A stretch of DNA of 604 bases, taken from the NCBI RefSeq assembly GCF_003334405.1, contig NZ_QOWM01000061.1; one strand, given 5' to 3'. The notes under the pieces were generated by a model, which worked only from the letters and a program-made list of their open reading frames with translations, made no database searches and was not told the DNA's origin. Position numbers and translations under genes: made by a program. Below, piece after piece: positions 78 to 220 of the stretch; positions within the stretch are counted from its first letter, which is position 1; every line of letters starts with the position of its first letter. This DNA is from Escherichia coli (GTDB lineage Bacteria > Pseudomonadota > Gammaproteobacteria > Enterobacterales > Enterobacteriaceae).

Positions 78-125
78 ATACGGGTGTTACCTGAAAGATT
101 TTTACTCGGGGCCAATCTTTAAGAT

Positions 126-168: not shown

Positions 169-184
169 CGTTGCTGGCGCAACG
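169..184 (-). other. Predicted short GC-rich hairpin (6-bp stem, 4-nt loop)
   Basis: Plus strand cgttgc (169-174), loop tggc (175-178), gcaacg (179-184) form a perfect inverted repeat. Confidence 0.35.
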
Positions 185-197
185 TTATCCTTCACGC

Positions 198-220
198 TTA
201 ACATCTGAGTTTGATGTTAA
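198..220 (-). other. Predicted RNA hairpin in the tRNA-Lys 3' trailer (8-bp stem, 7-nt loop)
   Basis: Plus strand ttaacatc (198-205), loop tgagttt (206-212), gatgttaa (213-220) form a perfect inverted repeat. In transcript sense this is CCA-GUU-UUAACAUC-AAACUCA-GAUGUUAA, starting 3 nt after the CCA. No U-tract follows, so it is not an intrinsic terminator. Confidence 0.5.

Follow-up and report, generated by a model that had tools for sequence, protein, structure and literature searches.

The long lysine tRNA trailers of the Escherichia coli lysT operon are probably short-form RtT modules with a selected fold

Two nearly identical stretches of spacer RNA follow two lysine tRNA genes in the lysT operon of Escherichia coli, and a preliminary description of this DNA had pointed out that the few differences between them fall mostly in the loops of two predicted hairpins. 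The question is whether these hairpins are RNA structures selected for pairing and, if so, what kind of element carries them. The DNA analyzed here, which we call the window, is 604 nucleotides long. ARAGORN, Rfam and the K-12 annotation identify it as the lysW-valZ-lysY-lysZ portion of the E. coli K-12 lysT operon on the minus strand, and it is 100% identical to K-12 MG1655. The operon comprises seven tRNA genes and is located between cpoB and nadA in K-12. As all tRNA genes are on the minus strand, the transcript is the reverse complement of the window. In the order of transcription, it contains tRNA-Lys(UUU) lysW (528-603), tRNA-Val(UAC) valZ (303-378), tRNA-Lys(UUU) lysY (224-299) and tRNA-Lys(UUU) lysZ (2-77), all of which were assigned by the same three sources.

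A direct repeat of 175 nt (126-300 and 430-604, 97% identity) comprises a tRNA-Lys gene and the 98 nt of trailer after it. The repeated part of the trailer, or module, starts right behind the CCA of the mature tRNA-Lys, and its last 18 nt repeat the 3' end of the same tRNA. Module copy B (M2; 430-527), delimited by the direct repeat, the Rfam RtT model RF00391 and pairwise alignment, follows the 3' end of lysW in the lysW-valZ spacer, and copy A (M3; 126-223), delimited by the direct repeat and RF00391, follows that of lysY in the lysY-lysZ spacer. Both are encoded on the minus strand, as are all RNA features described below. The unique parts of these spacers (379-429 and 78-125, respectively) correspond to the entire 51-nt and 48-nt spacers of E. 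coli alleles that have no module. The K-12 operon carries five modules, which are located behind lysT, lysW, lysY and lysZ and past the lysQ terminator, and only the last of them is labelled 'RtT sRNA' by the NCBI pipeline. This fifth module (positions 2012-2200 of locus L001) is preceded by the lysQ terminator and followed by a second, identical copy of the same terminator, and its 5' part contains a piece of the tRNA-Lys T arm in inverted orientation (GATTCGAACCTGC); strains that do not have this module possess a single lysQ terminator. The first tRNA-Val gene of the operon, valT, has single-base variants in two E. coli strains (L075 and L079; GCTCAACTGG and GGGGGGCGGCGG), and an exact-match tRNA-Val search therefore misses both.

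The two modules align over 98 nt without gaps and differ exactly at the five positions listed in the preliminary description (177/481, 192/496, 208/512, 209/513 and 212/516 in copies A and B, respectively). The hairpins are also where it had placed them. In copy A, an 8-bp hairpin, H1 (198-220), is formed by 198-205 and 213-220 around the 7-nt loop 206-212, and a 6-bp hairpin, H2 (169-184), by 169-174 and 179-184 around the 4-nt loop 175-178. Four of the five differences are indeed found in loops, three in that of H1 and one in that of H2. The remaining one, 192/496, had been assigned to a position outside the predicted hairpins. It is not in a loop and it breaks no pair, but it is not outside the structure, as it is the sole mismatch of a 10-bp long-range stem, where the base opposite a G is A in copy A (A·G) and U in copy B (U·G). 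With all five changes taken as independent, the probability that at least four of them fall in 11 of 98 positions is 4.3 × 10^-4, and it rises to 4 × 10^-3 if the adjacent 208/209 pair is a single event and to 0.03 if all three changes of one loop are, values that have to be read bearing in mind that both hairpins were picked after inspection of the sequence. The probability that none of the five changes falls in the 28 stem positions is 0.18, and the sparing of stems is by itself not significant. An inversion of the loop was considered and rejected, as the reverse complement of one copy's loop differs from the loop of the other copy. Taken from two copies alone, the loop bias is suggestive but not conclusive.

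A larger sample was obtained by scanning 100,044 species genomes for a tRNA-Lys 3' end followed, after 40-70 nt, by GGCCCGNAGGGCGAG, a pattern that leaves H1 and H2 unconstrained. The scan returned 70 loci, nearly all of them in Enterobacterales, and the modules occupy the same spacers across many genera. From these loci, 104 distinct trailers were extracted, 42 of which have an H1-type hairpin, like those in the window (type II), and 62 belong to type I. Type I modules (L001 986-1088 and 1801-1902, and 60 others) have no H1 and differ in their 5' part; they contain a conserved GGUGG 8-12 nt past the CCA, which is complementary to CCACC in the 3' end of tRNA-Lys and is located inside a small hairpin with varying arms. 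A tRNA-Lys operon of the typical enterobacterial kind, with RtT modules, is also found on two contigs that are labelled Hylemonella sp. (L034, a MAG) and Chryseobacterium sp. (L064), and these labels are probably the result of mis-binning or contamination.

The 42 type II modules, which come from about 35 enterobacterial genomes, were aligned with MAFFT. H1 is 98.2% paired in this set and has 19 stem haplotypes with double changes at five of its eight pairs (TTAACATC/GATGTTAA, TTAACGTC/GACGTTAA, TTAATGTC/GACATTAA, TCAACAT/ATGTTGA and AACACC/GGTGTT). H2, which was evaluated in 82 distinct cores, is 98.8% paired and displays double changes at five of its six pairs (CATCGC/GCGATG in Edwardsiella, CAACGC/GCGTTG in Chimaeribacter, CATTGC/GCAATG and CGTTAC/GTAACG) together with 25 different loop sequences. 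From the alignment only, RNAalifold recovered H1, the long-range stem, H2 and a third hairpin, H3. Each measure of the whole structure in the type II set was above all 500 column shuffles and above every slid register, although the shared ancestry of the sequences causes such shuffle controls to overstate the significance. Column diversity was 0.42 in the loop versus 0.15 in the stem of H1, and 0.43 versus 0.035 in H2. Furthermore, the mismatched intermediates of H1, read in the transcript sense, comprise 22 G·U and only 3 A·C, which points to RNA rather than to DNA or the opposite strand as the molecule that is paired. In six other genomes that have two type II copies, the 13 loop columns hold 12 differences, as against 7 in the 28 stem columns; every one of these stem differences keeps a standard pair.

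The multi-species alignment, which the preliminary description had proposed as a check, thus yields compensatory changes in both H1 and H2 at about 98% pairing, with the reservation about ancestry made above. Together with the RNAalifold consensus, the G·U/A·C asymmetry and the six two-copy genomes, it bears out the proposal that the hairpins are RNA structures selected for pairing. At the level of sequence, these comparisons demonstrate that the pairing of H1, H2 and H3 is kept by purifying selection with compensatory changes, whereas the loops drift faster. Hence, the differences between two young copies are to be found in loops or at a mismatch position. The long-range stem has to be treated separately, as both of its strands are invariant in the lysine set and its 3' strand was demanded by the extraction pattern, which makes covariation impossible. 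Likewise, cross-genus invariance of the duplicated tRNA 3' end is not something we can claim, because the pattern required this sequence and E. coli has decayed versions of it.

The loops are not simply relaxed regions. They are more variable than the stems, but the H1 loop is constrained both in its length, which is 7 nt in 38 of the 42 copies, and in its sequence, for which the majority motif is NNACUCA. The H1 loop of copy A (AAACUCA) has the majority form, whereas that of copy B (GAAGACA) has diverged, and the three changes are derived in the lysW-valZ copy only. After modules that separate two tRNA-Lys genes, the ACUC of the H1 loop (window 206-212) co-occurs with a GAGU(A/G) motif in the unique spacer (window 98-104, GAGUA within 78-125), with a Fisher p of 0.01 that is not corrected for the ancestry of the 42 related loci. 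This co-occurrence may reflect orthology only, or it may reflect a loop-spacer contact of 4-6 bp.

In the predicted fold of the module, H1 is located 3-4 nt past the CCA, behind an A/U-rich linker. In copy B, it occupies 502-524 (502-509 paired with 517-524, loop 510-516), and H2 occupies 473-488 with the loop 479-482, which reads GUCA as opposed to GCCA in copy A. H3, found both in the folds and by RNAalifold, is a 4-bp hairpin (GCCC-GUA-GGGC, 158-168 in copy A) that is 98% paired across the cores. The 10-bp long-range stem is formed by CGUG(A/U)AGGAU, which is complementary to AUCCUGCACG within the duplicated tRNA-Lys 3' end. Its 5' strand is CGUGAAGGAU at 187-196 in copy A and CGUGUAGGAU at 491-500 in copy B, and the 3' strands at 134-143 and 438-447 are parts of the duplicated ends at 126-143 and 430-447 (AUCCUGCACGACCCACCA), respectively. 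The stem closes a junction that contains H2, H3 and a small fourth hairpin.

Folding of the spacers alone in the transcript sense gave H1 in both minimum free energy (MFE) structures and H2 in that of copy A, but H2 was absent from the structure of copy B. In the fold of the entire 604-nt precursor, H1 and H2 of both copies belong to the MFE structure; their exclusion from it, which the preliminary description had named as an outcome that would speak against its reading, was not observed. The pair probabilities in the precursor are 0.79-1.0 for H1, and 0.86-0.89 and 0.41-0.45 for H2 of copies A and B, respectively. The long-range stem is present in the MFE structure of the copy B spacer and in the RNAalifold consensus, the latter being the source of the stem assigned to copy A. 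In the MFE structure of the copy A spacer, the 5' strand (187-196) pairs not with the duplicated tRNA end but with a downstream segment, AUCUUUCAGGU, which belongs to the unique spacer 78-125 and may be a further decayed copy of the tRNA end. The duplicated CCA end also forms hairpins with what comes after it, CCAAUCU-UAA-AGAUUGG in copy A (112-128) and CCCACC-ACUAAUGAC-GGUGGG in copy B (416-436), and in module-less alleles an analogous hairpin is formed by the real CCA (CCAAU...AUUGG).

That the module is a structured RNA is therefore upheld; what the preliminary description missed is its membership in a known family, in the consensus of which H2 is already present. The Rfam RtT model (RF00391; gathering score 45) matches copy A with 54.4 bits (126-292) and copy B with 54.9 bits (430-596), both on the minus strand, and the five modules of the lysT operon score 46.7-60 bits. 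H2 aligns with the consensus hairpin CGucGC-loop-GCgaCG. The two copies have the location of RtT elements, since they stand behind lysW and lysY and end with AUCCUGCACGACCCACCA, which is identical to the tRNA-Lys 3' end, and they have an outer stem of the RtT kind, CGUGAAGGAU/AUCCUGCACG; cmscan put the 5' strand of the model elsewhere. It matched the model's 5' half to the tRNA-Lys body at the cost of a 44-nt insertion, inside which H1 is left unmodelled. As the true homology extends over the 3' ~70 nt only, the reported RtT boundaries are misleading.

The comparison with the four RtT units of tyrT, the type locus of the family, clarifies the relationship. Both kinds of element are parts of a tRNA operon transcript, stand directly behind a tRNA and end with the 3' end of that tRNA including its CCA. 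They share a core that consists of CGUUGC-loop-GCAACG, GCCCGNAGGGCGAG and CGAGUNAUCC; at the DNA level, CGTTGC(C)-loop-(G)GCAACG, GNCCCGAAGGGCGA and a hairpin ahead of ...GAGTAATCC are common to the four tyrT units and the lysine modules. They also share the outer stem, in which an upstream segment is paired with the duplicated tRNA 3' end. In the tyrT units, this end is that of tRNA-Tyr and the 5' strand GGGGAAGGAT is complementary to it, so that the strands of the outer stem are GGGGAAGGAU/AUCCUUCCCC in the Tyr units and CGUGAAGGAU/AUCCUGCACG in the Lys modules. As each 5' strand matches the local tRNA end, the outer stem is kept in both subfamilies with a tRNA-specific sequence. However, full-length homology that would include the 5' domain of the family (model ~24-60) was not found for M1-M4 in the alignment with the four tyrT units. 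This domain of ~40 nt is present in the tyrT units and absent from M1-M4, which are shorter by this length, whereas M5 retains part of it; the truly homologous region is the 3' ~70 nt. Conversely, H1 is found after the CCA in the lysine modules, but neither in the tyrT units nor in the Rfam model. Judged by these alignments, the copies in the window represent a short form of the known RtT family and H1 is a lysine-specific addition outside its Rfam model. A literature search returned no description of the lysT spacers as RtT elements and no report of a structure for them.

The modules turned out to be variable in E. coli itself. We read the lysT operon in 10 E. coli genomes, namely K-12 and nine others sampled at regular intervals along the similarity ranking (L072-L080 compared with L001), and in this set every lysT module is a precise presence/absence polymorphism. 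The long and short alleles of the spacers measure 135/35, 149/51, 146/48 and 132/33 nt, with the tRNA CCA of a short allele continuing exactly into the sequence found behind the duplicated CCA of the corresponding long allele. M1 and M3 are present in eight genomes each, M2 and M5 in five each, and M4 in three. Strain EH01-18-04-A (NZ_CP063515.1) has all seven tRNA genes and not a single module, other strains lack one to four modules, and O157:H7 Z1766 has six tRNAs and one module. As the boundaries are an 18-nt direct repeat, the absence of a module is most simply explained by slippage or recombination that deleted it. Decay is visible too: the duplicated tRNA end is mutated in several strains, strain C122 has an A·C mismatch in H2 along with a mutated duplicate, and the module copies of L030 and L056 are visibly decayed. 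Since all seven tRNA genes are retained in strains without some or all of the modules, the function of the module, whatever it is, is non-essential.

Processing of this operon was studied by Agrawal et al., who found that its tRNAs are separated by RNase P, which leaves lysine pre-tRNAs with trailers of 133-150 nt, that these trailers are removed by the exonucleases RNase II and PNPase, and that cleavage of the long spacers by RNase E occurs chiefly in cells with defective RNase P (PMC4176162). Unlike the preliminary description, which had suggested processing or stability determinants, their account explains processing without any role for the spacers and does not discuss spacer structure (PMC4176162). 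We consider it probable, with moderate confidence, that the lysT repeats are paralogous RtT modules with a selected fold, which make the trailer self-contained and are not essential. The module RNA would fold on itself, with H1 after the CCA and the long-range stem closing the junction of the smaller hairpins. It contains both a decoy tRNA 3' end and the complement of this decoy, which also matches the 3' strand of the real tRNA. With the decoy paired to its complement, both would be kept off the neighboring tRNAs and the trailer would constitute an autonomous, inert unit, leaving these tRNAs free to form their cloverleaves, to be cut by RNase P and to be trimmed at their 3' ends. The module would possibly be released as an RtT-like RNA, and recombination of the real tRNA 3' end with its duplicate would remove it easily. 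The element is dispensable and its pairing is conserved, and we therefore favor the reading of the trailer as self-contained.

The model was also explored by thermodynamic prediction, from which it received limited support. When one or the other strand of the long-range stem was freed in silico, the predicted probability of the acceptor stem of the upstream tRNA fell in three of four cases (from 0.24 to 0.00, from 0.96 to 0.02 and from 0.96 to 0.17). Disruption of H1 left the predicted tRNA folding unharmed and gave no support to H1 as an insulator of tRNA folding, and deletion of the decoy in the context of copy A improved the predicted acceptor-stem probability from 0.24 to 0.73. As disrupting H1 is harmless and deleting the decoy is helpful, the decoy model, which is purely thermodynamic, leaves H1 unexplained. 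H1 may be an element that positions the 3' cleavage or an insulator that acts by folding fast.

The main rival to the self-contained trailer is action in trans, in which the module is released by RNase P and a 3' cleavage as a stable RtT-like RNA, a compact junction that has a tRNA-like ...ACCCACCA tail. Such an RNA might mimic the acceptor end of an uncharged tRNA or titrate a tRNA-binding factor, and the hairpins would in that case be conserved for its stability or shape. Membership in the RtT family and the constant 7-nt H1 loop with its semi-conserved ACUCA are consistent with this possibility, as are the reports that the tyrT RtT is a released RNA tied to the amino-acid starvation response and that RtT homologues of Actinobacillus, located beside Lys and Asn tRNA genes, give Northern signals (PMC4986893; bioRxiv 10.1101/2024.07.17.603846). 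However, no released spacer RNA is reported in the study of the lysT operon, the model of which is degradation by RNase II and PNPase (PMC4176162); the modules are freely lost in E. coli, and those behind lysine tRNAs are without the ~40-nt 5' domain of the tyrT RtT. We regard action in trans as unlikely. It is quite improbable, in our estimate, that the modules have no function at all and are by-products of unequal recombination or slippage at repeated tRNA 3' ends, which persist by turnover within the operon and owe their loop bias to chance or to a mutational bias of exposed loop bases. The precise presence and absence of modules bounded by 18-nt direct repeats, their variable copy number, the visible decay of some copies (L030, L056 and strain C122) and a two-copy probability of only 0.03 with the clustered loop changes counted as one event would all fit this explanation. 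Neutral decay, on the other hand, would yield neither 98% pairing with 19 haplotypes and double changes at 5/8 and 5/6 pairs nor a 22:3 excess of G·U over A·C, and the same spacers are occupied in many genera.

Selection could also act on the DNA, with the hairpins being an operator of a dimeric protein, a cruciform or a quasi-palindrome perfected by template-switch repair. Conserved arms around a variable center would suit an operator as well, and so would the nearly invariant outer four base pairs of H1 (TTAA/TTAA) and the arm spacing of almost always 7. But the inner arms change with their complementarity kept, whereas an operator would conserve its sequence, and the 22 G·T versus 3 A·C intermediates in the transcript sense contradict the symmetry that is predicted for DNA. 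In addition, the hairpins belong to a tRNA operon that is highly transcribed, and the promoter/terminator search of the window gave no promoter-like site, all of which makes this explanation very improbable. Just as remote is a present or past mobile cassette that inserts at tRNA 3' ends with target duplication and has a fold that serves its propagation. Homologous cores do stand behind Tyr and Lys tRNAs, each flanked by the local tRNA 3' end, and presence/absence is precise; yet an internal 5' strand complementary to the local tRNA end is not expected of a transposing element, no associated enzyme was seen, the positions are orthologous across genera, and the empty alleles are explained by direct-repeat deletion. 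Integrases of phages and islands leave direct repeats of the tRNA 3' end (att sites), and in lysT an 18-nt duplicate of the tRNA 3' end likewise bounds a precisely present or absent segment. However, this segment is only ~80 nt long, carries no gene, is part of the operon transcript and includes a complement of the repeat. Slippage or unequal recombination is enough to account for it.

Other identities of the repeated segment were considered and rejected. It is not an intrinsic terminator, as H1 is A+U-rich and is followed by GCGUGAAGG instead of being a G+C-rich hairpin with a U run. On the plus (antisense) strand, H2 (169-184) followed by TTATCCTTCA scores as terminator-like (2 sites found, 0.4 expected); it is the only match of this kind to H2 and is probably incidental. 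A small coding ORF of the tpr type is equally unsuitable: the ORFs that cover the modules are mechanical and lack conservation, a UAG in M4 (CGUUAG) interrupts the TTG-started frame through H2, and in the 52-aa ORFs of the plus strand the five substitutions alter four residues. Functional spacers of tRNA operons have precedents. The 3'ETS-leuZ and the internal spacers of metZWV, described by Lalaouna et al. in 2015, are reportedly Hfq-dependent sponges of sRNAs. They and the lysT modules are transcribed spacers of E. coli tRNA operons that are constrained in sequence or structure beyond their tRNAs, but their function is to sponge base-pairing sRNAs via single-stranded, seed-complementary sites.

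We also entertain, as a doubtful further reading, the idea that RtT modules are a general self-neutralizing cassette of enterobacterial tRNA operons and yield a released mimic of the acceptor end. Inverted and direct copies of the host-tRNA 3' end would pair into a junction the size of a tRNA, with its ...ACCCACCA tail free; the targets of the mimic could be, for instance, RelA/ribosome, RNase P, RNase T/PH or the CCA-adding enzyme, and H1 with its ACUCA loop, possibly touching the downstream GAGUA, would set the site at which the cassette is cut from the tRNA. If this were true, module copy number would tune tRNA maturation or starvation signalling, and the variation in module presence would be adaptive.

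In summary, the main value of these findings is in annotation: the long spacers of lysT are short-form RtT elements with a well-supported fold rather than anonymous spacer. The element itself is ordinary; it belongs to a known, curated family, is found in the best-studied bacterium and is non-essential. What goes beyond the databases, if modestly, is a conserved hairpin, H1, next to the CCA of tRNA-Lys, together with a natural series of alleles that have no module. Whether RtT-type trailers affect tRNA maturation or the starvation response has been a question since 1991, and natural strains, which show all combinations between five modules and none, offer ready-made, isogenic-like material for addressing it.
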